From Psilocybe cubensis (Eukaryota), in assembly GCA_017499595.2 (NCBI GenBank), contig CM039007.1:2914001-2978000 (forward strand): a stretch of 64,000 nt of DNA, given 5' to 3'. The notes below the pieces were generated by a model. The model was not told where the DNA came from. It saw only the letters and a list, made by a program, of their open reading frames with translations, and ran no database searches. Shown piece by piece: positions 1-54,698 of this stretch. The translations under genes and the position numbers were made by a program. How positions within the stretch are numbered: the first letter of the stretch is position 1; each line of letters starts with the position of its first letter.

Positions 1-175
1 ACCTGGAGGGAGCGGCGGGGGCCTGTGCGCGCCATTTACAATGGCAGCCGCGGCAGCGGTGAACGCGTCATAACTGGATCCAGTGAGGGCGGGCTTGGGC
101 ATATTGATACTGGGGAACCCATGTCGATATCGTGGCTTCTACCCGCTTCAGAATGCGTCTTCGTTTGGGCGTGGT
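1..175 (-). pseudogene. Degenerate fragment of a paralog of the PHD-SET gene (matches 14161-14333)
   Basis: Direct sequence match to 14161-14333 with mostly transition differences and a 2-bp insertion (atattgatac vs atcgatac). Similarity stops abruptly after ...gggcgtggt. The fragment probably continues upstream of the window. Confidence 0.85.
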
Positions 176-459
176 GAAAAGGATGATCCCAAAGCATTGT
201 CAAATGAGCATGTTCGATTATTTATACAAAAGGATACTCTGAAGCGGCTATCTAATGATTCCAACACAATTCATTCATTTTCCCAACATCTATGCTTGAT
301 TTAGTACACCGGACCGTTACTTGAAAATGTAGAGAATATATGTCGACCCATAAATTCCGAGACTGTATGCTTTAATCCTCCCCCAAGTTAACTTTCTCAC
401 GGCCCACAACTTTCAATTAACAAGTACAAATTTTGCCACCACACGATGAGCTAAACAAT

Positions 460-545
460 GCACTAACATAACCCTGAACGCACTGACACACCCTGACCAA
501 TTTATAGATCATTGGAAACATGCACTGATATTGCACTGACATTAC
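460..545. repeat. Short (TG)CACTGAC-motif repeat cluster
   Basis: cactaac / cactgac / ccctgac / tgcactgata / tgcactgac in tandem; same motif and orientation as the cluster at 5489-5550. Confidence 0.6.
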
Positions 546-643
546 TTGTTTTAGTGGGCCACCGCGGAGCGTGGCATGACGAGTCTTTACGATTCAGCGT
601 CATGCTTTGTAATAATATAATATATATATAATATAATATAAAT

Positions 644-1618
644 ATGTCCAACTTTGACGTGGATATCGGTGCAATGGACGAAGTGATATTCAGACTCCAA
701 GGCATAGTTAGCGACAAGATGCTACCACCAATGGCAAAGCCTGCTTCGTACGTCCACTCCATTGAGGTGAATTAATTACAAATGAGGACTGTTACAGCCG
801 CAACAGAACGGTCAAGCAACAACCATATTTACGTACCGCCATTGCTATCACGGGACTTGGAGACATTGTGTTCAATAAGGTGATGGAAAAGCTAGAAGAA
901 GTTTTCCTCCGTTTTGCAAACAATTTTCCCACGGACAGCGTCAGCGGCTATGACCCAGTTCTTCACAAAGACACGGGTTTCAATGTTTTCCATGCGCATA
1001 GCCAATATTTCACGAAGGTATCCGCATAACAAGACAAATCTGACAACATAGGTTTTCATCCCCTGGTCGACCCTGATAACGTGTTGGCATCCATGGTAGG
1101 GGACAGTTTCATCCACGCAATCGATAACAAGGTACAGTTTCTTCGTCGGGAGATACTTCCTGACGGAACAGCCAGGTATGTTTAGAAAATACCAACAACA
1201 CATCACAACCAAACTAATATCATGTTGCAACAGATATTATTCTTATAATCCTGCCTCCATACGAATTGGAGACATTGTCGAGATCAGTGTTGCCTTTGTT
1301 GCATTTCCTGCCCAAGGAAACAAGTACAAATTTGTTGTCGCTCTTCGCGGAATACTTGTCTTGGACCAGGAGGGAAGAGAGGTAAGCAATGTGACATTGA
1401 ACAGTCTCATAGCCATTCATAACTTCCAACAGAAAGCTGATATTCTCAGAATGCGGTCGCGCTATACTCCAGCGAAAAGACAGGTTGCTGTTTTGTGTAG
1501 GACAAAGAGGCAGCTGTACAAAGGTCAGATTGACATTGAAGACACGCAACAGAGGATGGCACGTATGCGCTTAAATGAGGACACAGTCCACAATAGCAAT
1601 ACTATATCCCAAGATTAA
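644..1618 (+). pseudogene. Spliced agaric hypothetical gene, possibly OB-fold/ssDNA-binding-like, with an in-frame stop
   Basis: Reconstructed exons MSNFDVDIGAMDEVIFRLQGIVSDKMLPP / ...ITGLGDIVF...YFTKVSA*QDK...VDPDNVL...DNKVQF / YYSYNPASIRIGDIVEISVAFVAFP...LRGILVLD, joined by GT-AG introns; TAA at 1027-1029. The fold assignment is inference. Confidence 0.55.
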
Positions 1619-1763
1619 TACATATGTACATAGAAAGACAAGGATATCATAAATGTGCTGAACAAACAATCAATCCATTTGCGTGAACATTGTAAATAAC
1701 AAGGAATAATTTGTCAAGTCATTTTCATGACAGAAATTATCTGAAGGTGTTAGTTGGCACCCC

Positions 1764-1875
1764 ATGGGAGAATTCTGCGTACACTGTACACAGAATATTC
1801 CCACACTCGGCTGAATATCGGGAGAGGTTGACCGTGGGAATATTCTGCGTACACTGTACGCAGGATATTCCCACG
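1764..1875. repeat. Two tandem ~41-bp hairpins (GTGGGAATATTCTGCGTACA-C-TGTACGCAGGATATTCCCAC)
   Basis: Near-perfect palindromes at 1764-1804 and 1833-1875, between two convergent gene ends. Confidence 0.85.
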
Positions 1876-1955
1876 CTCATCCGCAAGTCAAACTTACAAA
1901 TTAAGACAAAAAGAATGAGGACGAGAACACAAGTTTATTTCGAACAAAAATTTGA

Positions 1956-4808
1956 CTAAGGATGGAAGAAATTACAAATATCCATTCCACAAGAGGCTTT
2001 GTGGTTGAGGGCGATGCAACCAAAAAATATCTGCCTTTCTGGATAGCAAATACAAAACAGTTGCATGTACACGGTCATCTTTTTGCCTACATTACAGGAA
2101 TTAAATTGACAAATACTAAAACTAAAGAGCACACACCTTATACCCCTTTCCCAGGATTTGATAGCTTTTTTGACATGCTTGTGTAATTGGTAAACATCTG
2201 CCGCTGTGTAGTGAAAATCTAATGTGATACCGCTGATGCAACGGACACCAAAATGCAAACAATCAAATTCATTGAGCAACAATGCCCACGAATTGGCTTC
2301 AACAAAGGAAGTCTGATTTGCTTTGGGTAAAAGAGGCAAAGAATAAACCCAAAAATGCCTGTCGCCAACCCGTCTAATCCCAGGAGAGAACAACTCTGGA
2401 TAAGGATTGTAATCCAGCACAACAAGAACATGACCACAAGATGAACTATACCCAACATTTACGTTGTCCCTGATAGACTGTATCCTGCTTTGGATATGGC
2501 GGTCCATTTTCAAAGTTTGCAATGGAATGGAAAGAACAAATTTCAAGCCACGGGAATGATATTTTGCAAGAAATTTTTGCGCGTGCTTGAGGTCGGCAGA
2601 AGGTTGCAACAGAGAGACTTGATGTCCAAAGGTAGCATTTGGATACAAGCTGTACACCTTCTCAAAGGTAACAAAATTCATGACGCCGGCTGCAGTAGAA
2701 CAAAATTGAAGTTAACATTGTTTTGACACATGACATTGGGGACATACTGCTATGATACCCCAAAATGCACTCTACCACCAATTGACAAGTCGTAATCAGT
2801 TGGACAAAAGAACCTTGGCACCATAGGTTAACGACCACTCCAGTGGTATTGTAATGTCGATGAAGAGGATGTTTATCTGTGCTCGACATACATGTCCATG
2901 TCACCCGGAATCCATATATTAGCACAATTGATTATGAAACTTTATGTAAGTAAAGCAAGTTCTTTTATCCCCACAACCCACTGTACAAAAATATGTCCTT
3001 GCCAATTGTCCCCATCAGTAAATCATTGATGCCATCAAAATTGCGTGATTAATACCGGTTTTTTACTTAACCGGTATGCTTGACTTAATAATCGGTTACT
3101 ATCATAGAATTTCTGTTAGTTTTTGTTCCTACCAAGGGGATATGGAAATTAAAATACTAGATATTAGCTAGGTAGATAGGTTAGCAGCCATATGGTAGAA
3201 AACAAAATTAGATACCATTACATTATGACTTTTTAATTGCAAGTTAAACATTTTGACGCAGATAATCATCGCTCATAACCAAAAATTTTATAATAATGAC
3301 CTCATTCAACTGATTTAAGGCCATTAATTAGTCACAATCAATTACATACCAACTGTTTTGCATGCTTTATACACCTCTAACGGCAAGTAGAGGTAAATAG
3401 AATGCTTTATTGTTATCAAAAAAAATTTAGCATGAATGACTAGCAGACTGTGGTGGCATAGAATAAAGAATAATAAACATTATGTATCTAGCTATTATCT
3501 TTAATGCCACTTCAAATAACTTGTCATATTAAACTTGTTGTGCTGTTCATACTGGCCATGAATTAATAAGCAGACTGTGGGAATAACTTGCATATAGTGT
3601 ATGCAAGTTATTCTCATGGTTGCCGCACTTTGCATTGAGCAACTTGAACTTCTCTGGTAATTCCTGATATATTACTGAGATGCATTGCATATACTTTAGG
3701 TAAAATACAAGTATTTTTGGCAATAATAATTATTTTCAGTCCTAGTTTAGATGATCTTATTATATTTTACTTGCTGTGGTGTTTGTACTGGCCGTGAATT
3801 AATAAGCAGGTCGTGGGAATATCCTGCGCACACTGTACGCAGGATATTCCCACGGTCACTACACTCAATTTGCATTGAGCACTGGCCACTTTGGTCAAGA
3901 GATGGTCATTTTGAATAATGTTTTCCATGCATTGAATGTATTTTGGGGAAGAAATAATGCACTAACACTTGCAAATTGTGCTTGAAATATGTTTCCACAC
4001 AGCCAATTGTGTTCACAGCAACATCAAACTATACCAAAAAGAAATATGCGCACCAAACAAATGTTTTTGCACACAATATTGTTTCACTCTTGATGCACTT
4101 TTCAAAAATAAGAAAATTATATTTATGGGAAATATGTCCCCACTTGGGCAGCCATACACATGAGCATTCTTCCATCAGTTTTCCATACGGGATTCTCCCA
4201 GCAGATCTGGAATTCTTCAATATTTAGCAGGTATGAAAACTATAATAGACAAGTTCTTCCTTACAATTAGGCCTTATAACCTGTGCAGCTATTTTTTGTG
4301 TCTGACACAACTAAGCTTGTAGTAGACCTAAGTTATAGTAATTAATCATAACCTTGCCCAGTATCTGGCTGTGCATTCAGAACATATTAATATATATTAA
4401 CTATGTTATATAAATCTAGATTAAAAAATATTTTATACAATTGTGAGATGTAAAGTCTTGTCATGCCACACTTTGCGTTGGACCACTAAAACAAGTAAAA
4501 TGCAAAACGGTGGAACCTGAAATAACCAGGCCAGTCTTGAACTGGAGAAGACGAAACAGCAAATGTTTATTGGGTTTGAAGATAGGAGCAAATAAATTTT
4601 TGGGACGGAAGGCGCGGCGCATATAGCCCGAAACGCAGTTGTTTAGCTCCTTGCAAGTCCAAGAAAAACGGTAGAGCGTTTTCAGATCCATCTGATCCAT
4701 GTACACATTGTCCATGGGAGGCGGAAAGACTCTAAAAAATAAGTAATAACCAAATGAGATAAAACAGTGAACATACTATTGGAAACGGGGGGATAATGCG
4801 GAAGCCAT
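1956..4808 (-). pseudogene. F-box-like plus Pol-beta-type nucleotidyltransferase-like gene, split by ~1.5 kb AT-rich DNA and frameshifted
   Basis: N-terminal part (4461-4808): DLKTLYRFSWTCKEL...TGLVISGSTVLHF. It resumes near 2915 with WIPGDMDMYVEHR* (GS...DxD signature), then VQLITT...ILGYHS / VMNFVTFEKVYSLYP...KYHSRG. Confidence 0.6.
3535..3880. repeat. Two diverged direct repeat units, each containing the 41-bp hairpin (3577-3617, 3812-3854)
   Basis: tactggccatgaattaataagcagactgtgggaat vs tactggccgtgaattaataagcaggtcgtgggaat, each followed by the hairpin and tttgcattgagca. Confidence 0.8.
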
Positions 4809-5488
4809 GGGTAAAACAGTGCGGAGAAAAGTGCATTGTCTATACTATGTCAATAAATATATTAACCGTAAGCCGATAGACGCCCAACGTAGGGGAAGAA
4901 CAAATTGGTATGCGTGAGAAACGATCATGAATCAGAAAATCAAATTCAAATAGTACAGAACGCCCAGAACCCAAGAACGCGTAATTATTTCTATTTGAAC
5001 TCTGATTGATGAAGCTACCGATATCAAGGAACGTGTGTGCCTGCACAGTTCTATTTCCAACCTTTCAGACCCATAGTTCAAAGAGTGCATTTGTTCCATC
5101 TCTAAGTATTAGTACAATATATAAGCACGTTGGCTAGACGGTTCCACATGGTTTTAAAAATTAAACAACAACGCAAAAAAGTGAATTGAGTAGGACTATT
5201 GTTGTTGGGTATAATTAATTTTATGGAAACGCACATTCACATTGCGATCAAAACAAATCAAAAACAACCTTTAAAGTAACCAATGGTAAAAAGAAGTCGT
5301 AGAATGAATTGGAAAGGGGTTGCTTAGGGGGTCCGGTGACCGCTTAAGAAAAATACCGATAGCGGTAACGACATTGATCGCATCAATAATATTTTGATGG
5401 GGACAATTGGCGAGGACATTTTTGCTCGCTGGGTTGTGGGGATAAAAGAACTCATCTTTACTTACGTAAAGACTCGTAACTGCAGTTT

Positions 5489-5561
5489 GCACTCACATTA
5501 CTGCGGTATGCACTGACATGCACTGACCGCACTGACGTTGCACTGACATTTTCCAGTGCCC
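5489..5561. mobile_element. Putative right terminus of a DNA transposon: TGCACTGAC repeats followed by ATTTTCCAGTGCCC
   Basis: Four CACTGAC units then ...TGCCC, the same layout as the right end of the 29127-30658 element (TGCACTT repeats, T-tract, TGCCCC). No left end found in the window. Confidence 0.4.
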
Positions 5562-6858
5562 AGACTTACAATATCAAGTATACATACAAGGACTTGGGCA
5601 GCAATGAGCTTGGGCAGATGTCAGAAGCGCAACTGGCTGCGACAGGAATGACGAAGGAGGATGACTGGATGTATTGATCACAATCGTCAATTCTAACGGC
5701 ATATGAACGGTCATGGAGACGGGACCGGATCGTAGATGATGTGTGTACAATGAAGTTTCTTGGTTTGTAACCTTCCATATCTGCTATAAGCCTGTAGAGA
5801 GACATCTGAAAAGCTTTCCTTGAGTCATTTCTCGTGAACTGGAATGGAACACGGAAACTCACCATACACTTTAAGGCCAGGCAACACCCGGAAACCCTCT
5901 TAGGTTCTGGCGCGAATTCATCCAAAATGGTCCATCATAGTATCATCCTAAGCACTTCCATCGTCCTCCGTTGACCTCTCCATCACACAGCCCTACCACA
6001 TGTCTATATAATCTGAATATAGAAGGCGTGACCCACCAAAAGTGAGAATATGTGGAGAGGAGGTCACAGAGCACAAAAATAGCTTACGCCGTATATGCTG
6101 TTCCACTCACCCATCAAATAATCATCTGTTGTTCGATTTGTTGATAAACAATGCTTTTGTATAGTTGACCAGCAACAAACGTCCTGTAACAAACATCAAA
6201 GGGATGATCAACTATTTTTCGTTTTGTTGATTACTCGAGGTTATTAGTGTTTTGATATAATTGAACAACAACAAACTTCCTCTAACAAGCATCAAGGCGA
6301 CAGATATATACAGTATTATCAAGGAAAAAGTTCGTTCTCAAGCTTCATCAGATTAGTAACATTAGTTGGTGTTGATGGAATCGGGTTGATCAGGTGCATA
6401 TACTCTCGGTATTCCGAGTAATCGCCAACTCTGTGTCGGCAGACCGGACTGACTTTGATTCTGGCTTCTGAATCGGCTATAACTTGATGAACACACGGTA
6501 AGCGACCATCAGCGTCAAACGTTCGAGGAACAAGATTAACAAAAAGTGTTAAGAGCCATCAAAAGAATCATGGAGATGCACTTACAAAACATGTTTGTCT
6601 ACTCTCCAAGGCCTCCAACGACCAGGATATCCCGGTAGATCAAGGGGATGATTTCTGATGCCATGACGAGCGATAGTGAATTTTCCTTTAGCATATTTAT
6701 AGGCTTTGATCATTTTGTCCCTAGTGTAACAATGGCAAATGTAGGGTAGATTGTGGGAGTATCCGATGTATTCTGTCAGATTTCGATTTTTGCAGAGATA
6801 TATAAAGGAAGGAAGAATGAATGAGAATACCACATTGATTCAAGACCTCCAGAATAAC

Positions 6859-9800
6859 ATGCCTGCCCATTCTGATGTAATTATTCCTATCCCACAGGAC
6901 GTCAAAAAAGACCTTACATCTCTTCAATTCAATTCAACAATGGTTTTCAATTTTCTCACGGGTATGAATATCATAATTTTTCAAATTTATTAATTTCATT
7001 TTCACTCGAATTATTGTTGCAGGCGGATACACTTTGGTCTACGGGAGCACGGTATTTCTCTATAGTGCGTAAATGAGTCGATCCATTCATAATTCCTGCC
7101 AACTTTGCATTGAAAGTGTCTAAGAAACCAGCAGGAAAAAATACACTCTTTGTGCTACCTCTGATAACCATTCTCTACATATCGTCCTGGTATATATTTC
7201 TCCTGGAATGGATACTTGTGCTGCACAATTATGGGGTCTCTGTAGATGTCCCCAACATCACGGGGGTGGTACATGACATTGTTTTTTTTGCGAGAATGTT
7301 GATTGCAGACACATTGTTGGTACAGCCTTAGCTGCTAGTTGAAGCCTTCATATCTGGCAGTTGCCAGGTGTATGGGAAGTATCTACGCTGGCAACTGCCA
7401 GGTGCCACATTTGAAGTCTTCAGCTGGGCGATGGTCAATACAGCCAAACAAATCCCAAACACGGTGAGCGGGGCCCCGCCGGGCGCGAAAAATGGCGTAG
7501 CTCGTTGTTCGGGCGGCCGTTTGGGGCGGAAAAAAATGCGTCGGGGTCGGTTCGATGAGCAGACCACGTCGGCATTGTTTGCGCGACGTTATGGACAGCG
7601 GGCGGGGTGGATAGGGCGGGGCGACGTTGGATGACGCCCGCATTATTTCTGGGTGATTTCCCGATTCGGGTTGCAGATCATTGATGTATTGATGTAATCA
7701 AATTGATCATCACCATCAATCCCATCACGCCGCGGCCATCGATTCAGCCAGTGCATGCACCGTGCGCGCGCGCGTTGAAAACGCGCACTGCTCGTTGTCC
7801 CTTAGGTCTTTCGCGCAGAGACTTTACTATGAGACTTATAATATTGATAATAGAGTGATGTCCTGCGACGCCGTATGTTTACCAAATCAAACCAATGTGA
7901 TATCTAAAGGATTACAATGCATTATGCAACACAGCACCACCAGTATCTTTACATGTTTCGAGATAGTTGATGGACACGGCACATATTTTGAGTGACTATG
8001 GATTAGAAAACATAGTAATAAGATGATCAATGCATGAGTAATTTGGTAATACTTGTCAAACACAGTTCATGTGATGGCTTTTGATGAATGTTGCTACTGT
8101 TATATCCACTGGCACTTGTTGTGCCCTTCCTGTGCCACTCTGGATGCTATATGTGTTTGTATGTTGTTAAGAAAGTTTGACAATTATTGCTATATATGTA
8201 GATTCTTATGCACGACTGTAAAGCATCGGAAAGCTTGCTCGAGAACACTTTATTATCTCAATGTCTAAAAATAGCCACATTTCCGGACGCTCTTTCCACG
8301 TCAATTCCAAAAGTAAATATTCAATTGGGAAATATCCTCATGTTGAAGTTGCAAAAAAAATTATTGCTAAAATAATGTAAAATCATTCTATATCTAAAAA
8401 TGCCATGAAAAAAAAATAGATGCCCCAAAAGGTGTGCTTCAAGCTCGGAAGGTCGACCTCAGAAACTACTAAATCCATAAATTCATCCAACAAGATCACC
8501 TTGTAGGAAATTACAACACACGGTATAAAGTGTATATATTTCAATTCATTTTTAAACCAGCTACATGTTGGTATCTTTTTTTTGATGTAATCTTTAGAAT
8601 TGCTTTCAGAATTGCAAAATTACATAGAAAATTTTGAATCCGAGATCACCAAATTAGATTCCGGCACTGTATATGTGCTAAATATTGAGTGAGACAGCAA
8701 ATATAACACTGTTTTTGTCTATACTTCCAAGATGAATGCTCTGTAGAATAGGTTGGTTACTCATATGCCCTTTTATTTGATCTCGAGTTCATCAGAATGT
8801 GAAAGTAATCAGTGACCCCTTCTTTTTGCATCATTGATACTGTCAAAGTAGCAGCAATCCCATTTTACATTATATATTCTTACTATATATTGCTATATAT
8901 GATCACATAAACAAGATACAGGCCTCTAGTGACATTAGTAGCCTATAGGTTGTGCTAAATAAGTTGTCTACTCTGTGCTTCTGCCAATCAAGGTATCATA
9001 CCACTGTTTGCCCGAGCCTACTCAAGGTAATTACCACAGCAGACTGACTGAACTCTACAAATGTGGGTCAATATTACCACTCACCACTGTCACATGCCTG
9101 TATAGGTAACCTCTATGCTTTATCTGCGCTGCAAGAGCGCCGGGATAACGAGCAGTGCGCGTTTTCAACGCGCGCGCGCGCGCACGGTGTATGCGCTGGC
9201 TGAATCGATGGTCGCGGCGTGATGGGATTGATGGTGATGATCAATTTGATTACATCAATACATCAATGATCTGCAACCCGAATCGGGAAATCACCCAGAA
9301 ATAATGCGGGCGTCATCCAACGTCGCCCCGCCCCATCCACCCCGCCCGCTGTCCATAACGTCGCGCAAACAATGCCGACGTGGTCTGCTCATCGAACCGA
9401 CCCCGACGCATTTTTTTCCGCCCCAAACGGCCGCCCGAACAACGAGCTACGCCATTTTTCGCGCCCGGCGGGGCCCCGCTCACCGTGTTTGGGATTTGCT
9501 TGGCTGTATTGACCATCGCCCAGCTGAAGACTTCAAATGTGGCACCTGGCAGTTGCCAGCGTAGATACTTCCCATACACCTGGCAACTGCCAGGGTACGA
9601 AGACTTCAGGGCGCGACTACAGGTGGTTGGTAAGGATCCTATACATGGTAATCAATAAATCTCTGACCAGTGAGTTGGTGAGAATATTTAATCAGATATG
9701 GAGATGCTATCACGTTTTTGGAAGTTCAATACGAGCGATTGCCATCCCGTTGATTCTTTTTGTTATTGAATGTGGTGCGTTGGATGGCTAGCTTACCATC

Positions 9801-10451
9801 GCTTCTAGATTAATAAAATCGCTCATGCCAATTAGGCCTATACCTGCAACACGCAGTGTCATTGGTCAAGCAAAATGCTCAAGGTTTCGTTACACAGAGC
9901 CAGGCAGTCACCGCCAATGATATCATGGGAGCCCTGCTACTTATCTCCGTCGCAACGACTGCTTCAACCTCGTTTCTCATAGGATACAGAATACACACCG
10001 TATCAAAGGAACATACTCTGTCTTCCTCTTCCACACAGTCATTCCGACACATTGTTTTTATAGTCATCGAGTCAGCGGCGATATACACCATATTTCTCTT
10101 CACATTTGCTATCTTAGCTGTGCTCCCATCAATCCAATCCACGAAAAGTGTCTCGCTTCATGTGGCGCAATATCTTCAACAATTTATGCACTTCGCTACG
10201 GTAAGAACTATCAATTTTTGGTGATATCGTTGCTTGATATTATTTAATGTATGGTGTAACTTCAGGGTATAGCGCCGACGATCTTGGTTGCAAGAGTTTC
10301 CACGGCACAGATGAAAACCGAGGAGACTCGCGGCGGCTCAGACTTCCGTCATCATGCAACATCATCAAACAGACCACCCAATTCTCTCTTCAACGGAGCG
10401 GGTCCCAATGCCAATGACAAGCCGAAATCCAAAAATCTGGAATCTGATTAG
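6859..10451 (+). CDS. Multi-pass (about 7 TM) agaricomycete membrane protein, GPCR-like family; transposon inserted at a splice donor
   Basis: Spliced reading MPAHSDVIIP...FNFLT/GGYTLVYG...LIADTLL/IWRCYHVF...IESAAIY...FAT/GIAPTILVARV...LESD*; clearly paralogous to 21978-23239. Confidence 0.75.
7323..9625. mobile_element. 2.3-kb non-autonomous foldback DNA transposon: ~500-bp TIRs, CA...TG ends, 7-bp TSD GTTGGTA
   Basis: 7354-~7819 is the reverse complement of ~9123-9593. The outer ~30 bp are imperfectly inverted. GTTGGTA occurs at 7316-7322 and 9626-9632. The AT-rich core has no long ORF. CA..TG ends with a 7-bp TSD fit P or hAT. Confidence 0.85.
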
Positions 10452-11129: not shown

Positions 11130-14100
11130 TTACCGTGGACGCCACCGATCTCCACCAGCAGGCGGCCCACCGCCCCTTCTCCCTCCACCGCCGCCACCGC
11201 CTCTACCAGCGTACCCCCTGTCCCTGTCCCTGTCTTTCTCCCTATCCCTATCTCTGTCCCTATCTCTATCTCTATCTCTATCCCGTTCCCTATCTCTATC
11301 CCTCTCCCTCTCCCTGTCCCGAACACCAACACCGCTACCAGCAAGACTACCACTACCACCACCCCCACCACCACTACTACTAGCACCACCCCAATACCTC
11401 GGCCCACGCTCGACCTCATCACGCTCCCCACCCGCACCCGCACCCACACCCGCACCCGCAGCGCCAAACACCACCACCTGCTTCGTCCGCGCTTTCTCCC
11501 GCACAGCTTGGACGCGCTTCGGCATGTCCGAATCGATGGTGTCCGGGGCGTTCGACGATGACGACGTAGTTGTAGATGTAGAAGTAGAAGTGGGAGTGGC
11601 GTTGGTGTTTACACTCGCGTTTACACTTGCACCCGCACTTGCACTTGCACTCACATTGTCGTTGGCCGTGGAAATGGAAGAGGAAGAGGACACAGTGCCA
11701 GTAGCAGCAGTCGGAGGAGGAGGCGTACGCGCCGTCCAACTCACCCCCCAACCCTTCCCCCCACTCTGCCCCGCACCCTTCCCCCCACTCTGCCCCGCAC
11801 CAGCCACAAACTCACCAGACCCAGACAACAACCCACGTTCCAGCGCACGCTCGACCTTGGGGAAATACGGCGTCGGCATTGTAGGGTAATGTACCGCCGG
11901 GAGATGCAACGGCGACTCTTTGCCTGATTTCGCCTTGGATTTGGGTTTCGATTTGACGTTGGCTGTGCTGGCGGTGTTCTTGTTTGGGCGCTCCCGCTGC
12001 TCGTCGGGGGTTGTGGACGCGGTAGCCGTGGCCGTGGCCGTGGCCGTGGCCGTAGAAGCAGACGCCGATATACCCATACCCATACCCGTACCCGTACTCG
12101 TACCCGTACCCGTGCCCGTACTCGAGCTAGGCAAAGTCACACTTCCATCGACCTTGGGAAAGTACGGCGCCGGCCTGTTAGGATAATGCACCGCGGGGAG
12201 ATGCAACGGCGACGGAGACTCCTTGCCCGCCAGCGACTTTGATTTCGCAACAGATTCCGGTGCAGGTGCATTACCCTGCAAAGCAGCAGCAGCAGCAGCA
12301 GTAGTAGTTGTTGTTGTTGGAGTAGAGCTCACATTGTTGCTGTTGTTGTTGGCAGCGTTCGCTCTAGAAGCACCCAAAGCAGAGTTTGCATTCGCGTTGG
12401 AACTTCCCAGGGGAGGGCCGATGCGTGAGCGCAGTGTCGGCGCAGCAGCAGCAGCTGCTGGTGGTGCAGCTGGTGCTGGCACCGTCGAAGCGCTTCCGCT
12501 TCCCGTAGCACTCCCAGCCACACCCACTGCTCCATTCCCATTTCCATTCCCATTCCCATTCCCATTCCCATTCCCATTCCCAGCATCACTACCACCACCA
12601 CCACCACCACCCCAACTCGTACTTCTCCCCGTCCCGACACCCATCACACTCGACCCACCGCTCGCACCCGCACCCGCACCCGCACCCGCACCCGTGTTCG
12701 CAGATTGCTGCCTAAGCGCCCTCGGAGCCTGTGGCGGCTGTCTATGCGCTCCAGGCCCCCCCATGCCCATGCCCATGCCCATACCCATACCCATACCCAT
12801 ACCCATGCCCATACCCATGCCGAGACCAAGCCCCATAGCGCGCGGCGCACGGGGCGCAGACGGCGGTGGCCGTCCAATATGCGACGGACTGGACGCCGTA
12901 GGTGTCGGTGTCGGTGTCGGTGCAGACGTCGGTGCCGGCGTACTACCGTGCAAATGAGAGTGTGAAAAGCCAAAGCTCGACGCCGCGCTCGGGAACGGAA
13001 TAGACGGCGACGATGGCGCGGTCGCAGCGGAAGACGGCGGGGACGATGCTTTGGCGGTAGAGTTTCCGGCCGTTGGAGGATGTTGGATCTGGTGCCCCAG
13101 TCGTCGGATCAGCGGCTGGTTGTGGATCTGATTCTGCTGGGCCTGCTGGTGCTGGTGCTGGTGCTGGTGCTGCTGGTGGTGGTGCTGGTTCTGACTCTGA
13201 TTCGAGGCATTACCAACCGACCCCCAACCTGCACTACGCAACGGCGGAGGCGACACCTCTCCAATCTCCCTCTCCCTCTCCCTCTCCCTCTCCTTGAACT
13301 GCGACTGAGCTTGCACGGGCGACTGCGCCTGCGCCTGCGCCTGATACACCCCACGTGGACTGCGCGCCGCATACGGAGACAAGGAATTGAAGCTCCTCTG
13401 CGCACCATTACCGAAGGAGAGGTCAGACGAGATGGGAGACACCGAGCGCGCGGTGAACCCTGTGCCCGAACCACCACCACCACCACCACCACCACCACCA
13501 CCACCACCCAAGCGCTGCGATTGAGCATTGGCATACGGGTGCGGATGTGCGTGATTGAACCGCGAGGAGCCGGATCGTTGTGGAAGGGAATGGGAATGCA
13601 TCGGGCGGCTTGTTTCATTGCTAGAAGTCGGATTGGCGCCGGGACTATACGATCTCCGATTAACATTCCTATATAATGTACCAATCAATTTGGTTTTTGC
13701 AAAAAATCAAGAACGAGATTTTATTCTAGACTCACCATCCATTCCCATTCCCATTCCCATTCCCATTGGCGTTGGCGTTGGCATCTGAAGTTGGGTTTGC
13801 ATTGGCAATACCAGCAACAGCACCCCATTTAGCATTCGAGACAGGGCCTCCTTTCTGCAGAGTTTCCATAAGCACATTTCCTTCAGGGACACGAGACAGA
13901 TCGACATCCAACATCTCCTGCTTCGCTTTGAGCGTCTGCACTGGCGCCGGAGCGTCGTTCGCATTCAAAGCAGTCACATCACGTGTCGCGGGAAGAACGA
14001 CGGCGCTGGCCTTGGGTGGCGTTTTCAACACAGAACGCGGCGCCGGCGGTGGACTCACGGGAGGCGGCGTTGGCGACAAACTCATCAATGTAGGCGAGAA

Positions 14101-17100
14101 CGGCCGAGGGGGCGAGCTGCGCGGCGGAGTCGGTGCGCGCTTGACTGGCGATGATGTCACACCCGGAGGGAGCGGCGGGGGCCTGTGCGCGCCATTCACA
14201 ATGGCAGCCGCGGCGGCGCTGAACGCGTCATAGCTGGATCCAGTGAGGGCGGGCTTGGGTATCGATACTGGGGAACCCATGTCGACATCGTGGCTCCTAC
14301 CCGCTTCAGGCTGCGTCTTCGCTTGGGCATGGTCGTCTGTGCTAGTGCTGATAGCCTTGCCAGCATCCAGACCCTGTACCACAGCAGGAGCAGGAGCAGC
14401 ATCCACATTCGCGCCACCCCCACCTCCACCTCCACCTCCACCTTCCCCACCCTCAGTCCCAACAGCAGCAGCAGAACCCCCCACATCCCCATCCTCCGGC
14501 GCCAAATTACTCGCCACGCTCAGCGGCGACGCCTGCGCACTCGCACTGCGCTCGCGCTCCTCCATCTCGCGCTGCTGCTTCTGCTGCTTCTTGCGCAGCA
14601 CAAAATCGCGGAGTGACAGCTTGACCTTTTGCGGTGCGGCAGGTGGCGAGGGCGCGCGCTGTGGTGCGGGTTGAGCTGGTGCAGGGTCGTGGGCTTGGGT
14701 TTGTTCGTCGGGTTGGGCTGGGGTGTCGTCTTTACGGTCTTCAGGCATCGGCTGCGTTGTGCCCGGAGCTGGTGTTTGTTCTGAACTTGATGTTGAAGCG
14801 GACAGCTCGTCGACTGTATGAACCGGCGAAGGAGGCGCAATGTCGATCTTCGGTGTATCCTCTCTCCCCATTCCCTCCCCTTCCTCCTCCTCCTTCATCA
14901 CATCCTCCACTGGTTTCCCCACTTCTCGCTCCACATTCACATCTTCCATCACCACATCACCACCTTCACCTTCACCTGCACCTGCACCACGACCCACACC
15001 ACTTTCTTCCCCTGTTCCAATCTCGCCACTTTCAACACCCATCGTACTCATCCCAGTCAAAGGAGGCGGCGTAGCAACCTCCCACTCCGCTCCACGCACA
15101 GTCGTGCCAATTACAGGGGGTGGACCCGCTTCTTCCCTTTCCTCACCCTCCTCCTCGCTCTCTACGCCCTCGTCATCGCGGTGCAGATGTTTGTCGACAC
15201 CAGCATGGTCAGACACTTGCACGTCTTCGAGTGGTAGAGGAGAAGGTGCAGACTTAGCTTCGTCGACAACATCGATATCCATACGAACTTGAACAATGGA
15301 TTCCGCATCATGCTCCTCCTCATGCTGCTCTCGATCGCGTTCCAAGTCAGCCACTGGCGTAGATACAGATGTAGCGCTCTCCACAGAGGTTCGCAAAATG
15401 GGCACAGGCGTAGGCGTCCGAGACCCCGCACGCGCGACCTTTTCATGACTCGACACCGATACAGCTGTGTGTACAGGCATGGGCGTGGGCGTGGGAGACT
15501 TGGTCCGTGATCTTCTTCCCCGCGCGCCACTCTCCCCATCCCCATCCTCATCCTCTTCATCCACATCCATCTTCTCCGCCTGACGTTCGCCCGATCCTTC
15601 ATCACCATACCGAGCAACTTCTTCCTCCCGTTCCTGCACATGGTCCAGTATAACACTCCCAGCCCGCCGGATCGGCGTCCACTCCTTTTCCTTTTCCTTT
15701 TCGCTTCCATCCTCCCTAGGGCCACCAATAGCATCACCAACCCCACCCACCTCCGACGATTTCCCCCGCTGATCTCCGACCACAGCCTCACCAGGAGCAG
15801 AAGCAGACCACGGCATCTTCGGGCTCTCCCGCTGTCCCACGCCCATCTCAGCCAACAGCGCAGGCGACAGCAGCGACAGATGCGCAAGCTGCATGAGCGG
15901 CGAGGCAGCCGCTCTTTCGAGATGTGCACTTGACTGGACGGGTTCAGCGTGCGTCGATGTCGTGGATATTGCGGAAGATGGTGTAGGGACAGGGACAGGG
16001 ACAGGGACAACGGGTGTCTGTATAGGCGTAAGCAGCTGTTGCGTCTCTGCATTGGGTGGTGGTAGCTGTGGCGATACAGATACAGACGGTGATGGAGAAG
16101 TTGGGAGACGCGCGGTTGTAAACGGCGAAGGCGAGAAAGGCGGGTTTGCTGTGGAAGTTGAGCTCGTCGCGGGAGACGAAACGGGTGGTGGCGCTGGACC
16201 AGATGATGGCATCATTGCAGACGCAGGCAGAACTGCAGGCGGCGGCGGCATCAACGCATCGCGCGTGTCTGCGCCATAAGCCGATGGATCAAAGAATACA
16301 TAAACATGAAACAACGCACCTGTGTTTCCAGCGTCCTCGTTCTCGTGCGTGCGCTCGATCCGTATTCCAAGACCAACGCGGTCCGTCACATTCTCGATGT
16401 CCTTTGCAACCTTCTCAACCTTCTCCCTAGCAATTTTCTCTACTTCAACCTTCTCCGCCAATTCTCTCCTTTCCTGTTCCTTATCCAAGGGTTTTACACT
16501 ATCTGCCTCAGTGTTATTGCCTGGTGCAGATGCGCCCTCAGAAGCAGATGCAGCAACAAGTGCAAGCACCTGTGCCTCGCGGTGCATCCACCGCTTGCGC
16601 ATCTTGGGCGGCATCCGCGCCTCCTCGACCTGTGTCGTACGTTGCGACTCCGGTGAAGGTGCAGGGTGGATCGTAATGCTTATGCCAGGATCAAAACCAT
16701 CTGCAAAATTCAGGATAAGCTATGATTCTCGACGCAGTGGCACTTAAACGGCCAGGACAACAGAAGAATGCAGCGTACCTGGTGGATCAGGAGGGCGAGG
16801 CTCAGTCTCGGCGGTCGGATGCATGCGAGAGACGGGGTCCTTGTGTATGCGCGCTGGCGATCGGGTTTTCGTCGACTCTGCATTGTTTTTGGACGTCGAA
16901 CGTGGGTCTTCAGTAAAAAAAAGTAAAATACAAAGGGTCGGTATAAATTGATCGGGGATCACAAATGAATGAGCAAGCGGACGAACGAAGAGTGAGAAAA
17001 ATGTTGAAAAAAGAAAAGAGCTGGAAGACGCACCTCGTTCCGCATCACCCATCTCCACGTCCACATCCTTATTCGTGTCGTCAACGCCATCCCTGAGATC

Positions 17101-20100
17101 CCGCATACGCTCTTTACCCTTCCCGCGCCGTCGGAGCACACCTTCGTCCGTCGGCGAGAGCTCGAGCCCAACATGTCCATGTCCGTTGACACCATTGACC
17201 TTGGCTTCGTTGTCATCCCGCTTATCCTTCGACTTGACCCTTTCCCTTTCCTTATGCTTGTCCTTCCGCTTCCTGTGCTCCTTCTCCTTCTCCTTCGCAC
17301 GCGCACGGCCTCTGCCATCGTCATCATCATCGCTACCGCCAACAATTTCCATTCCACCCATCCCACCACTCCCCCTGATTCGCTCTCTTGTCTTGAACCC
17401 TCTCTTAGCACCCACCAGCGGTCCTAGATCCGGCACATTTCCGTCCCAGCCCACACCATATCCATATCCATATCCATATCCATATCCGCCTTCCCCAACA
17501 CCCGTACCCCCAGGCACATCCCATCCAGCCACACCTGCACCAGCCCCAACGCCTCTCCGGACACCTTCCACGCCAACCCTCTCCACCCTCTCCACAAACG
17601 CGGCCATCTGCGTGAGCGCACAGTCTCGTGCGCGCGAGCCGCACGCGCAGGTCGTAAAGAGCGATGCGAGGGATGCCAGTGTAAGCGAGAGGCGCGCGTG
17701 TAGGGATGTGAGTGCTTCGGGGCTGGGTGTGTCGGTGAGGTCGGGGTTGGGGAAGGATGCAAGAGATGGAGCGCGTAGGTCGATGTAGGGTTCACGGTTT
17801 TGAGAATGCGGAGGTATCGAAGTCGAAGTCGAAGTGTTGTTGATTGAAGAAGCAGGTGTACAGGGTGTGCTATTGTGTCGGTAAACTTTCGATAAAACGT
17901 GACAGAGATAAAGGGAAATAAAAAAAAAAGGAAAACATAAATCCCAAAATAACATGGCATCAATTCGATGCAAGCAAAACAGAAACCCCAAACGCCCAAA
18001 ATTGATATACAAATTTCCAAAGTACAACTCGCAAAAAAGATATAAAACTCACCTAAATACCCACGGCGCCTTCAACACGGCTGGTAGCATGTGCACTGCG
18101 TGGCCATCATCCCACTCCCAACCAAGCACCACCTCTTCACCTTTTTGGAGTTCGCGCAGCGCATAGACGCCGAATGTGAGAGTTTCGGGCTGACTTGTAG
18201 AGTCGTCGTCGTCTGTGTCGGACCCAGAGGCGGAGGAGCGTGAAGAAGATGGAGATGAAGAACGGGAAGAAGAACGCGATGACGAACGGGAAACCGAAGA
18301 GGTAACAGTCGCGTGGAGGTTTCGGGCACGCGCAGTGTGTACAGAAGAAGAGGAAGAGGAGGCGTCGCTTTCGGTATCTGAAGACGGCGCGTCGTTCTTC
18401 CTCTTCCTCTTCCTCTTTGCCTTCCTCTTCGCCCTCTCCCTCTCCTTATCATTCTCCGCCTTCTTCAAATCCTCCTTCGCCTTCGCCTTCCGTTGGGAAT
18501 CAGCACACACCCGCGGCCGGAGCACCGCATTCGGTCGACATCCACTGCGCACAAAGCGCGCTTCGCCACCAACCATACGCGCATCGAGAGCAAGATCAAG
18601 GTGTCCTTTGCCTTTACCTTTGTCCGCGCCCGCATTCTCCTTCTCCTTGCCCTTTCCTTTGGCGGTGCCTTTGTCACCACTGCTCACAAAATGCACACCC
18701 GGCCGCGGCATACCGGCCCCCGCATACCCATTCAACACATCCTTCACATACTCCGCCGAACTCTTAATCTCCGCATGAAACGGCGCCACGAATTCGCCCG
18801 CTTGTATCCCTTTCGAAGCCAATACGCAGTATAGCGGTGGCAGCACGCCGGGGTGTGCGGGGGAGAGCGCGAGCAGCGCGGGTGGATAGGGAGATGTGCT
18901 CGAGGAAGAGGCAGATGTGGATGTGGAAGGGAGGAGATGTAGAGTTGTCTTTGATGCTTCTGATGCAGGTGCGGGTTCGTGGCCTGGTGTATTTATATAT
19001 GTATAAGCACAATCTAAAAAAAATAGGCGATCAACACTCACCAAGTCCATCCTCGCCAACCGCGCTCACTCCACGCCAACCGCGCGCCTGTCGCCTCAGT
19101 CGTCGCCGTGTCTCGTCAGAAGGTACAACGTCATGCGTGACGTGTACATAAGTCTCCTTCCACGGTTCGTCTGCAGGTGTATGTGGAGTAGTGACAATGT
19201 TTGCATGTGCGTGCGCAGTAGACGTTGAAGATGGTGGCTGAGTCAGAGGTTGAGGTGGTGGCAACGAAGGTGGGTAAGGGCCTTGCGCCGAAGACGAAGA
19301 AGACTGGTAAAAGCCGGTACTACTATTGTTGGCGCTGATACCCACGCCATAACCCGGTGTATGGCTCGCAAAAGGAGACGGCTCAAACCCACCTTGGACG
19401 TAATGCGGGTTCGAGCGCTGGTACTCCTCCTCGCTGCCTTGTCCGTGACCGTTAGGCGTCAAAAACCTCACACCCATACCCGCCCCGGGACTATGCGCGC
19501 CCACAAGCGGCGACGGCGTATTCGGTTGCGCAAGGGAGCCTCTGCGTTTCTTCTTTCCCCCTCCTGGTGCAGCAGATGTCACGGAGAGATGCGCGCCGTC
19601 AGGTGTGGCAGCGGATGCCGCGCTCGGACGTCGTCTACGATCGACACCAGGGCTCACCTTTCGCCTCTGCTTCCCGCCGTGGTGCGCCTGCTGCTGATGT
19701 GGGTCATCCGCGCTCCAAGGCGAATACGGTGTCATCTCTACATCATGCTCTGCTGAACCCATAATTGAGAAATAATCACCTCCAGGCTCCCATCCTCTCC
19801 CATTCCCTCCATTATCGAGACCAACACCCAATGCCCTCAGCCGGCCCTCCATTCTCCTCCTCGCCCGCTCTTTTTCCTCTCCCTCTCTACCTTTTGACCC
19901 CCGAGGCACGCAAAACGCACAAAAGAACGTCTCGGGTACGGGTCCTTCTGCAGGAATGCCGAAGCAGAAATAATGACACCAGCGCCCACACCTGTCGCAC
20001 GCGATCGAGAACCCATCGTCGTAGGTGATGGTACAGATACAGTCGATGGGTTCGGTGGATATATCGGGCGCTTGCGAAGATAGCTGAGGTAGTGGCTGGG

Positions 20101-21151
20101 ATGGCGGTTGTGGTTGAAAGTGGGATTTTGATGGAGGTTGTGATTGTGGAATGGAGGTCGAGATCGAGGTTGCTTGCGGTAGTGGTTGAACAGGCGCGGG
20201 GAATGGAGATGATGTGGAACGTGGCGGTGCAGCCGTAGACGCAGAAGCATGGTGTAGCGCTGGCGACCCAGGACTTTGAGAGGGTACATGCGTTCCACCC
20301 CGTCCCCTCGCAGACGTTGATACCGGCGGAGGTGTAGGTGAAGGCGGTGCCATCGGAGGTGGTGGCAAAAGATGCTGTGGATGTGAATACATGTTTGTCG
20401 GGGTATGTGTGTTCGGGTGCAGCTGATGGGACTGCTGGTAGGACGAGGACGACGGTGTCGATGGGCGGTGCGCCAGTACACTGGCGCTCGTAGGATGCGG
20501 GCTGGCTTTGCCTTTCCCCTTGTTGCTGCTGTGGCTGTTGATACCGATATGGCTGATATGACCACCGTGACCCGCCGCCTCATACCTCGCCAACGACGAG
20601 GATGCGGACGCACGCCCGTACCCTAGCCCAAGCCCATACACCTGCCCTGGGCCCCTCTCGGCATCGACAAACCCGCCCTCAACGTCGCCTTGTTTGCGTT
20701 TGGCTGGGACAGTTGCTGTTGTGGGTCTTGACGGGCCATTGGGTATGCTTGTTGCCGCTGATAACGTCGGAGTTGCTGTGGTTGTCGTTGTGGTTGTGAT
20801 CGTTGATGTTGTTAAAAGGGTAGAACTCGTGGGTAGACCAGCTGTCGATACCAAAGGCGTCGTTGTGGTTGTGGCTGTTCCCAACGCCGCTTTCGAAGGT
20901 TTGGAGGAAGGTAGCGGCAACGGTGAATCCGTCGTCAGAATCGAGTTGAGTGTCGCGGAGGACGTGGCGCCCGTCATTTTCATTGGTGTTGGTGTGTGTG
21001 TATGCGTCGGGGTTGGTGTACGTCCGTGGTGGTGCTGTTGAGTATGCTGCGAAAAAAGCGAGCTGGACGTCGATGTCGATGTCGATTGAGCTGGATGGCT
21101 GATAGACAACAGCCCAAGTGCCGCCTCCGAGTCGCGGGCATCGAGGTTCAT
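11130..21151 (-). CDS. SET3: Set3/Set4-like PHD finger + SET domain chromatin protein, roughly 3,100 aa, mostly low complexity
   Basis: PHD finger: IDCICTITYDDGFSIACDRCGRWCHYFCFG...FFCAFC. SET domain: LALDARMVGGEARFVRSGCRPNAVL...FGVYALRELQKGEEVVLGWEWDD. The ORFs join through GT-AG introns, e.g. ~18052-17871, ~17033-16910, ~16779-16702 and 13735-13669. Confidence 0.8.
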
Positions 21152-21977
21152 ATGTTCCTCCTTCTCTTCGTCCCTTTCTACCCTCGTCTCCTTGTTCTTT
21201 GTTTCCTCGCCTTTCTGTCCTGGACTCTCTCAGAGGTGCCTTCTCAACACCGCCTTTCCCTTTTCCAAGTCCAAAACTCCAAATCCAATCGTTGGCCTAA
21301 CCCTTTCGTTCGAGAGCCCGCCGTGCAAAAACCGCCGCCTTTCTTATTTTCTCCTTCAATCCTTCGTAGCTTTGTATGCGGATGCGAACGCTCGACGGTC
21401 GTCCACAGCTGTTTAGTCGTCTTTTCTGGTCGTTGTTGCCGGTTTGAGTGTCCCTCTTCGTCCCCTCGTCGTCGAATCGTCGATGTAGAATGGATAGTAA
21501 GCTAGGGCGAGGGTTGCCCCAGAGAACGTAGACAAACCCTCACAAACATGAACACGCCGGTATGCCGGCTGAGTCATTGCGAGGTCGACGTGTCAGGTGA
21601 CGCCGCAACAGGCGCCTAGCGGGCCCTGAAAATGTTGGCGTTGACCATAAAAGAAAATCTGGTTTGAATCCTACTGAAATATAATGATTTCAATTATGAA
21701 ATTGAATTAGAAGATAATTTGTTGGCTGAACAATGCCACGAATGATTATTGTTGAAAGTCTTGAAAGCTTGAAATCGCACGCTGCCGAGAATAAATTCTG
21801 TGTCCCGCTTTACGGCTTCCCGGCCAATTGCAACAGCAAGTCAAACACGTTGCTACTTTCGACAACTGTGAATCGGGCTCTATCGTTCCAGTACATACTA
21901 TCATTTAACAGGGATTAAATTTGACGCATCCTTTGACAAAAAGTTCTGCCTAACTCTCCCCGACTCTCCGCGATTCC

Positions 21978-28000: not shown

Positions 28001-29086
28001 TGTGGCATTATTTTTGATGAACTTTGCAAGCCGTTGGTCATCTATAGATTCTCCTAGATCCTTTGTTAAGAACTGCTCATCCATGCCTTCAATGCCAGTA
28101 TTTGAGGAAAATGTCCAATTAGCGTCCCGAAGCACTGACAAGTGCAATGCAGCCGCTTCAAAATTGCCACAAATTGTGTAATACTTCTTTGCATGATGGG
28201 TGGAAGAAAGTGAAAGCAAAAGCTTGAGAATGATTGAGGGCTGTATGCTTTGAGGGGATAGGCTTGAAGGTTTGTCAAGATGCGGTGAGGAGGTAATGAT
28301 TTTGCGAGCTTGTTGAAGTGTATTAGGCCACTCCCGAACAACATCCCAGCCCTGTTCCATTGTATCAGTCATCAACCTATTTCATGTTTTGCCTGCTCAC
28401 CTTGAAATGTTGCAGAGTCTCTGCTGTCCATGTAGTTGGCCGCAAGATATTTAACGGCACTGGTGGGACTGACAATCCCACAATTGACGGGTGTCTAGCA
28501 ACACAATCAACCAGATGATATGCAACAAACAGGTTGGTAGCAATTTCATAGCAGGGGCCTATACTTGGATAGGCCATTTCAGCCCCTCCCACATCATGGT
28601 AGCCAAGGATAGCTCGTGTGTTACGAAAATGCACTGAATGGCTTTGTAACAAAGTATTCTCAAACTTCTCAATCTGTTGGGATAATTTCTGATATCTGGT
28701 CAGTAAACCCAAACAGAAGCAGTTTATCAATCCCACTTACATAGAGTGGGTGCTCTGTTGTTAATGACATTGATAATGGGCGGCTCAGCAGCATGGATTG
28801 GAACCCATGACGCTGTATATACGTGAATCTGCACCGAGAGGGTTTGCCTAGGATGTTTATGGTTAGCCTTAGCCAGTCTTGCAAGCATTTAACCCACTTG
28901 ATTCTTTTATACTGTAACTTTCGGCACTCATTGTACTATTTGACTGGTCTTGTTCTACGAGTAAGCTACTCTAATATGAACTGTAAAAGTAGGAAGAAGA
29001 GTTAAGATACAATGAACCGAACAGGCTGAACCCTCACACTTTAGGGCAGGGCGGACGATTTGATCCAGTGATGGCATCATGGCCAT
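25097..29086 (-). CDS. Large multi-exon JmjC-like (cupin 2OG/Fe oxygenase fold) protein; exact exon joining and intactness uncertain
   Basis: RWALAATKGAFHGWHMASNGLGTYIETKCGAKLWLLARP...EAIVLVPGTEL / IMRPNTLHMVYTPFDTVCHGGHFYS. Upstream exons at 26637-26885, 26945-27664, 27686-28375 and 28377-28736. First exon (MAM)MPSLDQIVRPALK is followed by gtgag. The 5' exons could be a separate gene. Confidence 0.65.
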
Positions 29087-29126
29087 CGCTTATGTGAGCA
29101 CTTGACACTGACCAGTGCTCACATAA

Positions 29127-30658: not shown

Positions 30659-30749
30659 TCACATAAGCGATACATGAACTGATATATGGTTTTTGTGCTT
30701 TTGCTTTTGTTATATTGTTCGACCGTTTGTATTATACTGCGATGTATTA

Positions 30750-33228: not shown

Positions 33229-33238
33229 GTATAAAAAG
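33229..33238 (+). promoter_or_regulatory. TATA box of the lectin gene
   Basis: GTATAAAAAG about 60 bp upstream of the ATG at 33297. Confidence 0.55.
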
Positions 33239-33296
33239 CGCGGTTAGGCTGGTCTTCATTTCAAACAAGTGCACTCGTCTACCACCTGAGAAGATA

Positions 33297-54658: not shown

Positions 54659-54698
54659 CGCTTATGTGAGCACTTGACACTGACCAGTGCTCACATAA

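Follow-up and report, generated by a model that had tools for sequence, protein, structure and literature searches.

We analyzed a 64,000-nt window of Psilocybe cubensis DNA (contig CM039007.1 of assembly GCA_017499595.2, positions 2,914,001 to 2,978,000 of the forward strand), the first 5,561 nt of which contain two decayed convergent genes, four related hairpins, two clusters of CACTGAC repeats (460-540 and 5489-5547), a terminus of the TGCCC type, and a fragment of a host SET gene. All of these features had been recognized in an earlier sequence-only reading, where they were explained as the right arm of a single large transposon, and all of them are present. The region is nevertheless not one large transposon arm, as it consists of three nested mobile elements, named M, E, and E'. 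The two genes, named gene 1 and gene 2, both belong to E; the former resembles single-stranded DNA-binding proteins (SSBs) of the T7 gp2.5 type, and the latter has an F-box-like head and a nucleotidyltransferase-like motif. As an overall explanation we favor, at a probability of roughly 0.55, the nesting of the three elements with E as a Helitron-like unit of the HLE2 type that carries this SSB/nucleotidyltransferase module. The features of the region are as follows.

1-175, strand not given: decayed duplicate of a SET-gene fragment, 92% identical to 14161-14333, continuing off the left edge of the window
460-543, plus strand: left half of the subterminal array of M, with four GCACTGAC copies (at most one mismatch), closing with ...TGCACTGACATT at 543
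544-5478, minus strand (HLE2 orientation): element E, carrying gene 1 and gene 2; boundaries set by homology with E'
544-640, plus strand: end of E shared with E', with the subterminal repeat arm at 579-591 and small stems
644-1618, plus strand: gene 1, T7 gp2.5-like OB-fold SSB-like; exons ~644-747, 798-1175, 1234-1381, and 1433-1618
1763-1809 and 1833-1879, strand not given: palindromes H1 and H2, between the 3' ends of gene 1 and gene 2
1972-2932, minus strand: 3' part of gene 2, codons 89-384 in the frame of the paralogue P0012, with codons 109-148 deleted and the frame shifted
2933-4496, plus strand (HLE2-like orientation): E', a gene-less relative of E, 1564 bp, having the two ends and the palindromes in common with E
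3576-3622 and 3812-3858, strand not given: palindromes H3 and H4, inside E', within a 110-nt tandem duplication
4497-4808, minus strand: 5' part of gene 2, codons 1-89, with the F-box-like head, the ISGS half-motif, and one 45-nt intron
5339-5478, plus strand: other end of E shared with E', with the terminal repeat arm at 5465-5477 and a 7-bp stem at 5455-5472
5479-5561, plus strand: right half of the subterminal array of M and its terminus ...TTTTCCAGTGCCC, with tandem arrays and an alignment to the ends of the element at 29127-30658

The innermost insertion was revealed by mapping gene 2 with tblastn, using the intact 384-aa paralogue P0012 as a query. Gene 2 falls into five pieces over 4808-1972 on the minus strand: residues 1-10 of P0012 align at 4808-4779, residues 11-89 at 4733-4497, residues 89-108 at 2935-2876, and residues 149-191 at 2874-2746 in another frame, followed by the rest of the protein up to the stop codon at 1972-1974. 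Hence, besides the loss of codons 109-148 and the frameshift, an extra 1.56 kb (2933-4496) divides the gene directly behind codon 89, an interruption that is absent from the sequence-only reading. This segment is E', which sits in gene 2 in inverted orientation relative to E. On the minus strand the insertion site reads ...TTG CAT TTT | ACTTG...TTTCATA | ATC AAT..., with no base duplicated; P0012 reads Leu-His-Phe-Ile-Asn across the same site, and E' lies exactly between the His-Phe and Ile-Asn codons (89/90).

Comparison of E' with the surrounding sequence defines the ends of E. The 544-640 end aligns with 4496-4402 at 70.7% over 99 columns, including a 49-nt core that is 86% complementary, and the 5339-5478 end aligns with 3075-2933 at 77.8% over 144 columns. 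When 2933-4496 is read on the minus strand, it presents the same left end, palindromes, and right end as 544-5478. The sequence common to E and E' comprises the 97-nt and 144-nt ends and the palindromes, and nothing else was detected; other copies of the ends of E were not found in the window by blastn with a word size of 9. An origin by simple inversion between the two inverted copies of 49 nt (542-590 and 4450-4498) was also considered and rejected, as gene 2 would not be rejoined in this way.

Element E is 4935 bp long, or ~3.37 kb excluding the nested E'. Its homology-set boundaries, 543|544 and 5478|5479, coincide with the positions where the repeat array stops (543) and restarts (5479). 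The left flank closes with ...TGCACTGACATT, and the right flank opens with ACTGCAGTTTGCACTCACATT ACTGCGG..., which are the two initial units of an array of period 21. Joining position 543 to position 5479 gives CACTGACATT|ACTGCAG, which matches CACTCACATT|ACTGCGG located 21 nt further on (junction CACATT|ACTGCRG). This restored array junction identifies E as a precise, duplication-free insertion into one continuous array. Since E is a separate unit inside the array, both arrays and the TGCCC end belong to M, and the cluster at 460-545, previously regarded as an internal array, is the half of the terminal array that was displaced by E. By the same evidence, the two genes are not the cargo of the TGCCC-ending element, as had been proposed, and reside in the unit 544-5478 that split its array. 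Target duplications are absent in both insertions observed (E in the array and E' in gene 2), and both empty sites can be reconstructed. Duplication of a TA dinucleotide or of a single base was rejected for E and E', since the array unit would then gain a base and gene 2 would go out of frame.

The outermost element, M, is a credible terminal inverted repeat (TIR) transposon with subterminal arrays of AGTGC-type repeats; its right end at 5561 is the only end within the window, while its left end and target site duplication (TSD) lie outside. The tandem arrays at 5479-5549 have periods of 21, 10, and 31. Exact GCACTGAC matches number 11 in the window versus 1.83 expected, and six of these 11 lie inside 480-540 and 5510-5547. 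With up to one mismatch, there are four copies in 460-540 and five in 5489-5547, all on the plus strand, thus the two arrays are direct and not inverted. The end of M closes with ...CATTTTCCAGTGCCC at 5561, and its reverse complement aligns with both ends of the element at 29127-30658 in the order GGGCA-n-GAAAA-n-AGTGCA followed by AGTGC arrays, which bears out the similarity noted previously. This sister element has inverted ends GGGGCA...TGCCCC, a 9-bp flanking duplication TCACATAAG, and an internal array oriented like one of its ends. Both M and the sister element show GGGCA, a short spacer, an A-run, and then AGTGC-type arrays; however, they differ in the array unit, which is GTCAGTGC against CAAGTGCA. 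The 9-bp TSD of the sister element presumably points to the Mutator-like group. A left end of M inside the window, for which the sequence-only reading proposed an upstream GGGCA end as a check, was considered and rejected, as AGACTTAC occurs in the window at chance frequency (36 versus 39.6 expected, at most one mismatch) and none of its occurrences adjoins a GGGCA end. An open reading frame (ORF) at 5562-5677 on the plus strand, directly outside the terminus of M, closes with ...KDLGSNELGQMSEAQLAATGMTKEDDWMY and a stop codon, and may represent the tail of a host gene that was cut when M inserted.

The sister element lends some weight to the alternative in which 1-5561 forms the right arm of a single large TIR transposon, either KDZ/Zisupton-like or Mutator-like, ending in TGCCC, with the genes as cargo and an internal array at 460-545: the terminus and array are like those of this TSD-flanked element, which itself has an internal array. 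Moreover, the host-gene fragment at 1-175 would suit a gene-capturing element, and the left end could lie beyond the window. However, the inter-array sequence has its own ends that are common to the independently inserted E', and the array repeat unit is exactly restored once E is removed. The attribution to the KDZ group, specifically, is not supported: the 9-bp TSD and GGGCA...TGCCC ends of the sister element do not match those reported for Zisupton and Dileera (8-bp TSDs) or for Kyakuja (7-bp TSDs, CA..TG ends, TIRs absent) (PMC12730594), and Pfam recognized no KDZ protein among the ORFs scanned. We consider a single large TIR transposon quite unlikely.

Gene 1 contains three GT-AG introns (~748-797, 1176-1233, and 1382-1432) and a single in-frame TAA at 1027-1029, where the paralogue P0004 has Tyr. 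It corresponds to JR316_0011156 of P. cubensis with 100% identity over the matched part, and the named relatives retrieved by a word search of protein clusters are all from P. cubensis, whose deposited models of this family splice round such defects in differing ways. A HMMER search with P0004 detected 605 representative clusters at E<=0.001, including 203 at E<=1e-10 and 8 at E<=1e-30. Typical members of the family are ~300-320 aa long and have ~55 N-terminal residues that the P. cubensis copies lack; in view of this difference, gene 1 on E could have been captured without its 5' part, or its translation could begin at a new start.

The structure of the gene 1 family was modeled with AlphaFold2 from an alignment of 52 sequences (P0004 and 51 of the 150 listed matches), resulting in a pLDDT of 86.8 and a pTM of 0.75. 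In a Foldseek comparison with PDB, ranks 1-11 are all gp2.5-type or phage-related proteins, namely T7 gp2.5, a DUF2815 phage-related protein, CP312R of African swine fever virus, the Enc34 SSB, and a Bacillus phage-related protein, with E-values from 5.5e-6 (T7 gp2.5) to 1.3e-2 and four matches at E<=0.001; bacterial and mitochondrial SSBs follow after rank 11 with weaker scores. Among the viral models of BFVD, 84 match at E<=0.001, including phage SSBs, CP312R, and many uncharacterized giant-virus proteins. The fold aligns with T7 gp2.5 (1je5), Enc34 (5odj), and CP312R (8hw5) over ~200 columns at a Foldseek probability of 1.00; by contrast with the T7 gp2.5-type SSBs, gene 1 is fungal, nuclear-genome-encoded, and multi-copy, shows 9-15% identity to them, and has no profile-level match. 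Thus, the OB-like fold that had been suspected from the sequence is well supported by the model, and the gene 1 protein presumably binds single-stranded DNA.

In the intact gene 2 paralogue P0012, the elements follow in the order F-box-like head, ISGS, 13-15 residues, [D/N]hDhYV, and then the conserved blocks G..IN and FH[ST]T.VMN, which also occur in P0016, a divergent but intact relative with 39% identity in the same genome, and in three fused proteins described below. The motif ISGS-x13-15-[D/N]hDhYV is aligned in all five members that cover the region (P0012, P0016, P0054, P0022, and P0033), with N replacing the first D in P0016; P0013 retains only the DMDM half, and P0014 and P0015 begin beyond the motif. 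In the window, E' lies between the GS and DxD halves of this motif. The motif fits the pattern hG[GS]...[DE]h[DE]h, which we take to be the signature of Pol-beta nucleotidyltransferases. The Pfam family Aminoglyc_resit (aminoglycoside 2''-adenylyltransferase) covers the motif in one of eight members, below the cut-off (E 0.0084, 16.7 versus 21 bits). Atlas feature scores offer weak leads, namely to clusters with Gad2 in about a third of their members (0.91 and 0.86) and to catalytic subunits of viral poly(A) polymerase (0.78). Taken from these motifs, a Pol-beta-type nucleotidyltransferase core is probable for the gene 2 protein. The term F-box-like denotes a resemblance only: the Pfam F-box profile reached E 0.12 in one of eight gene 2 members and left P0012 unmatched, and an Atlas cluster with 11% F-box-carrying members scores 0.94 for gene 2. 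Searches of Pfam, PHROGs, and PADLOC returned no significant family for either the gene 1 or the gene 2 protein.

Both genes are multi-copy in P. cubensis, and in this respect the recurrence of the module anticipated by the sequence-only reading is borne out. Gene 1 accounts for 11 of 21 candidate clusters, with 33 member sequences and a median pairwise identity of 95.5%, and its near-identical paralogues lie on several contigs; gene 2 is represented by five clusters among 1718 candidates, with 25 member sequences. The N-terminus of P0014, MSSTDKHPLH, equals the frameshifted junction across the 40-codon deletion in the window, therefore at least one other locus carries the same lesion, and the decayed composite was copied after its breakage. 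In P0013 (20 members), the N-terminal SCFV before INRANIW resembles the E' junction S-FI of the window; with three to four residues involved, this is only suggestive of the same junction. The copying of a broken composite argues for mobilization in trans or for segmental duplication.

Linkage of the two families is seen in P0054, P0022, and P0033, three proteins among 149 other listed gene 1 representatives that have a gene 1-like N-terminus and a gene 2-like C-terminus. The latter region contains an F-box-like stretch and the ISGS...DhDh motif, and matches P0012 with E-values of 8e-9, 3e-6, and 9e-5 by blastp, and 4e-9, 2e-6, and 6e-6 by phmmer, respectively (165-protein set). These proteins could be genuine fusions or could result from the merging of gene models; in both cases, the gene pair stands side by side on the same strand in them and is convergent in the window. 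Among the locus tags retrieved for the P. cubensis paralogues there is no adjacent pair of gene 1 and gene 2, which carries little weight, as most gene 2 copies are broken or unannotated.

A family of this kind could also be an ordinary, fast-evolving host family of Agaricomycetes that spread by segmental duplication, in which case the insertion-like appearance of E and E' would stem from rearrangement or gene conversion. The very large size of the gene 1 family (605 representative clusters), the divergent intact relative P0016, and the presence of a 12.5-kb near-identical duplication in the window are in line with such an origin; however, it does not accommodate the two precise, duplication-free junctions with reconstructable empty sites, the shared ends around the unrelated interiors of E and E', or the decayed copies with many near-identical paralogues across several contigs. 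It appears very unlikely to us.

As to the class of E, terminal inverted repeats of the conventional kind are missing. Between its first and last 80 nt, the sole inverted match of at least 8 nt is a perfect 13-nt inverted repeat, ACGAGTCTTTACG, at 579-591 and 5465-5477. The 5465-5477 arm is terminal, and the 579-591 arm lies 35 nt in from the opposite end, adjoining small stems. This asymmetric arrangement resembles the layout reported for Helitron2/HLE2: HLE2 elements are described as having 12-16 nt repeats, the right one followed by a stem-loop (PMC11417382), and Helitron2 as having asymmetric inverted repeats with hairpins and a 3' arm located 20-50 nt from the end (PMC5148889). The TC...CTRR ends of canonical Helitrons (HLE1) are absent from E, and this class was rejected. 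Judged from its ends only, E is best labeled a non-autonomous Helitron-like element of the HLE2/Helitron2 type, an assignment that we hold with moderate confidence.

Several observations weigh against the interpretation of E as an HLE2-like unit with an SSB/nucleotidyltransferase module. The insertion sites of E and E' read T|A (N|T when the ambiguous base is shifted) and correspond neither to the T|T of HLE2 nor to the A|T of HLE1, as given in the available part of PMC11417382. The terminal stems fold no better than shuffled sequences (z-scores of -0.01 and -1.27 at the 544-640 end, and -1.88 at the 5339-5478 end), and in E' the stems are decayed and the 13-nt repeat is kept at 8 of 13 positions. 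Only two members of the E family were seen, both in one window. Neither a RepHel nor a transposase was detected in the window, where Pfam recognized only SET, PHD, and HET domains in 48 ORFs of at least 110 aa, in accordance with the previous remark that no transposase is visible; the 12 ORFs of the E/M region gave no match at all, in a search that could miss split or intron-rich genes. For gene 1, the Foldseek TM-scores are moderate (0.31-0.36 by query and 0.35-0.52 by target, at 9-15% identity), and no SSB family was matched at the sequence level in Pfam, PHROGs, PADLOC, or a PDB profile search. For gene 2, the PDB profile search of the family yielded zero matches, and the single-sequence AlphaFold model of P0012 is unusable (pLDDT 32.8). 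In addition, both genes are broken and yet the composite was copied, hence the module is not needed in cis; and the window contains a 12.5-kb duplication with 99.99% identity, so segmental duplication may contribute to the gene copy number.

Some of the same observations would suit a different kind of mobility without target duplication, in which E is moved by a tyrosine recombinase, as in Crypton-like elements, or belongs to an undescribed class, and its genes perhaps constitute its own machinery. The T|A sites fit neither Helitron group, stem formation at the ends is weak, database proteins show the module to be conserved and in some cases fused, and the nearest look-alikes of both proteins are found among phage and giant-virus proteins. 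On the other hand, no recombinase of any kind was found in E by Pfam (12 ORFs), the continued copying of the broken composite argues for mobilization in trans, and the asymmetric 13-nt repeat fits the published HLE2 layout. On balance, we regard a non-Helitron mechanism as rather doubtful.

Known Helitrons offer partial parallels to the HLE2-like reading of E; the following comparisons draw on the accessible portions of the cited publications. The rice 'mother' Helitron DHH_Mothra encodes an RPA-like SSB and no RepHel, and gave rise to deletion derivatives that keep its ends (PMC4683698). It is similar to E in being a Helitron-family element with an SSB gene and without RepHel, and in being accompanied by derivatives that retain the ends and lose the gene. 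In contrast to Mothra, the SSB of E has a T7 gp2.5-type fold and not that of RPA, a second gene is aboard, the host is a mushroom, and membership of E in the Helitron family is deduced from the ends only. FoHeli1-2 of Fusarium oxysporum (PMC5148889, PMC11417382) resemble E in the absence of target duplications, a size of a few kb, and stems near the ends, although those of E are weak, and the 13-nt repeat of E is comparable to the 12-16 nt inverted repeats of HLE2/FoHeli elements, which have a terminal arm and a second arm 20-50 nt from the opposite end; however, E differs from them by lacking RepHel, by its T|A site versus T|T or TNAT|T, and by its terminal letters TAYGAR...ACAAGT. In its accessible part, the Fusarium survey finds no RPA-like gene in the FoHelis (PMC5148889). 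HELPO1 of Pleurotus ostreatus (PMC4289320), like E, occurs in the Agaricales, makes no target duplication, carries whole expressed genes of unknown function, and has non-autonomous copies, whereas HELPO elements have canonical TC/CTRR-type ends and insert at A|T (HLE1).

The history of the locus may be outlined as follows. E inserted into the array of M without target duplication; E' entered gene 2 of E later, and further copies of the composite then arose in the genome. Under the HLE2-like reading, E would be moved in trans via a single-stranded intermediate by a RepHel enzyme whose gene lies at another site, that is, presumably by rolling-circle transposition. The gp2.5-like protein could coat this intermediate, as proposed for the RPA-like genes of plant Helitrons, and the nucleotidyltransferase-like partner might act on DNA ends or on a host protein. 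As a tentative extension of this scheme, the SSB and the F-box-like/nucleotidyltransferase-like protein might constitute a conserved module, at times fused into one protein, that marks an undescribed lineage of mushroom elements moving as single-stranded DNA; this module would perhaps be derived from a virus or replicon, and its proteins might act on the element's own intermediate instead of being passively captured host genes.

Gene-carrying Helitrons and Helitrons with RPA-like SSB genes are already known, the latter from plants and some animals. In our searches of the open-access literature, no paper described the gene 1 family or the two-gene module, nor was there a report of a fungal SSB family of the gp2.5 type that is coupled to a nucleotidyltransferase-like gene on an element of this sort. 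If the proposed interpretation is correct, a large fungal family without a Pfam match in the copy searched (605 representative clusters) can be named phage-type SSB-like and tied to a nucleotidyltransferase-like partner, and both genes reside on a mushroom element that makes no target duplication and is probably of the rolling-circle kind. Recruitment of a second, unrelated type of SSB to a similar element would suggest that single-strand binding helps such transposons. For genome annotation, the locus illustrates that nested elements may pass for one large 'cargo' transposon, and it explains the disagreement among the P. cubensis gene models of this family.

The related palindromes H1 to H4 have DNA fold energies from -10 to -22.7 kcal/mol (z-scores from -3.2 to -8.7), and for each of them none of 200 shuffled sequences folds as well. 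In their alignment, 93.8% of the 80 pair cells are paired, and four pairs are changed on both sides, all of them in the third copy. This count of two-sided changes was reached by 24 of 500 shuffles and, with four sequences only, provides modest evidence. Rfam gave no match across 1-7000.

The SET-gene fragment at the left edge of the window is similar to 14161-14333 up to position 175, where the similarity stops. Its counterpart sits in the large ORF 13735-16719 on the minus strand, which adjoins ORFs with SET and PHD domains. The differences comprise ten transitions and two transversions, and nine of the ten transitions are C>T or G>A in the direction from gene to copy, as expected for a silenced duplicate. 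The source of the fragment, or its sister, is a very large gene at 11133-21229 on the minus strand, with SET and PHD domains in its upstream ORFs and many short tandem repeats; its G+C content is 54-63% versus 34-51% across 1-10000.

Other features of the window include a 486-bp inverted repeat with 96% identity (7340-7819 and 9123-9608) that encloses ~1.3 kb and resembles a further element of the long-TIR kind or a foldback element. The ORF at 38850-39878 on the minus strand encodes a HET (heterokaryon incompatibility) domain (E 2.9e-22). The 12.5-kb direct duplication joins 25927-38429 to 51499-64000 with an offset of 25572 and reaches the end of the window; it stems either from segmental duplication in the very recent past or from duplication in the assembly, and it includes the TIR element at 29127-30658, the second copy of which lies at ~54699-56230. 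A run of adjoining same-strand ORFs of 110-246 aa without Pfam matches occurs at 25100-28736 on the minus strand and again at 50463-54308, and may represent a frameshifted or intron-rich gene, perhaps that of a transposon.

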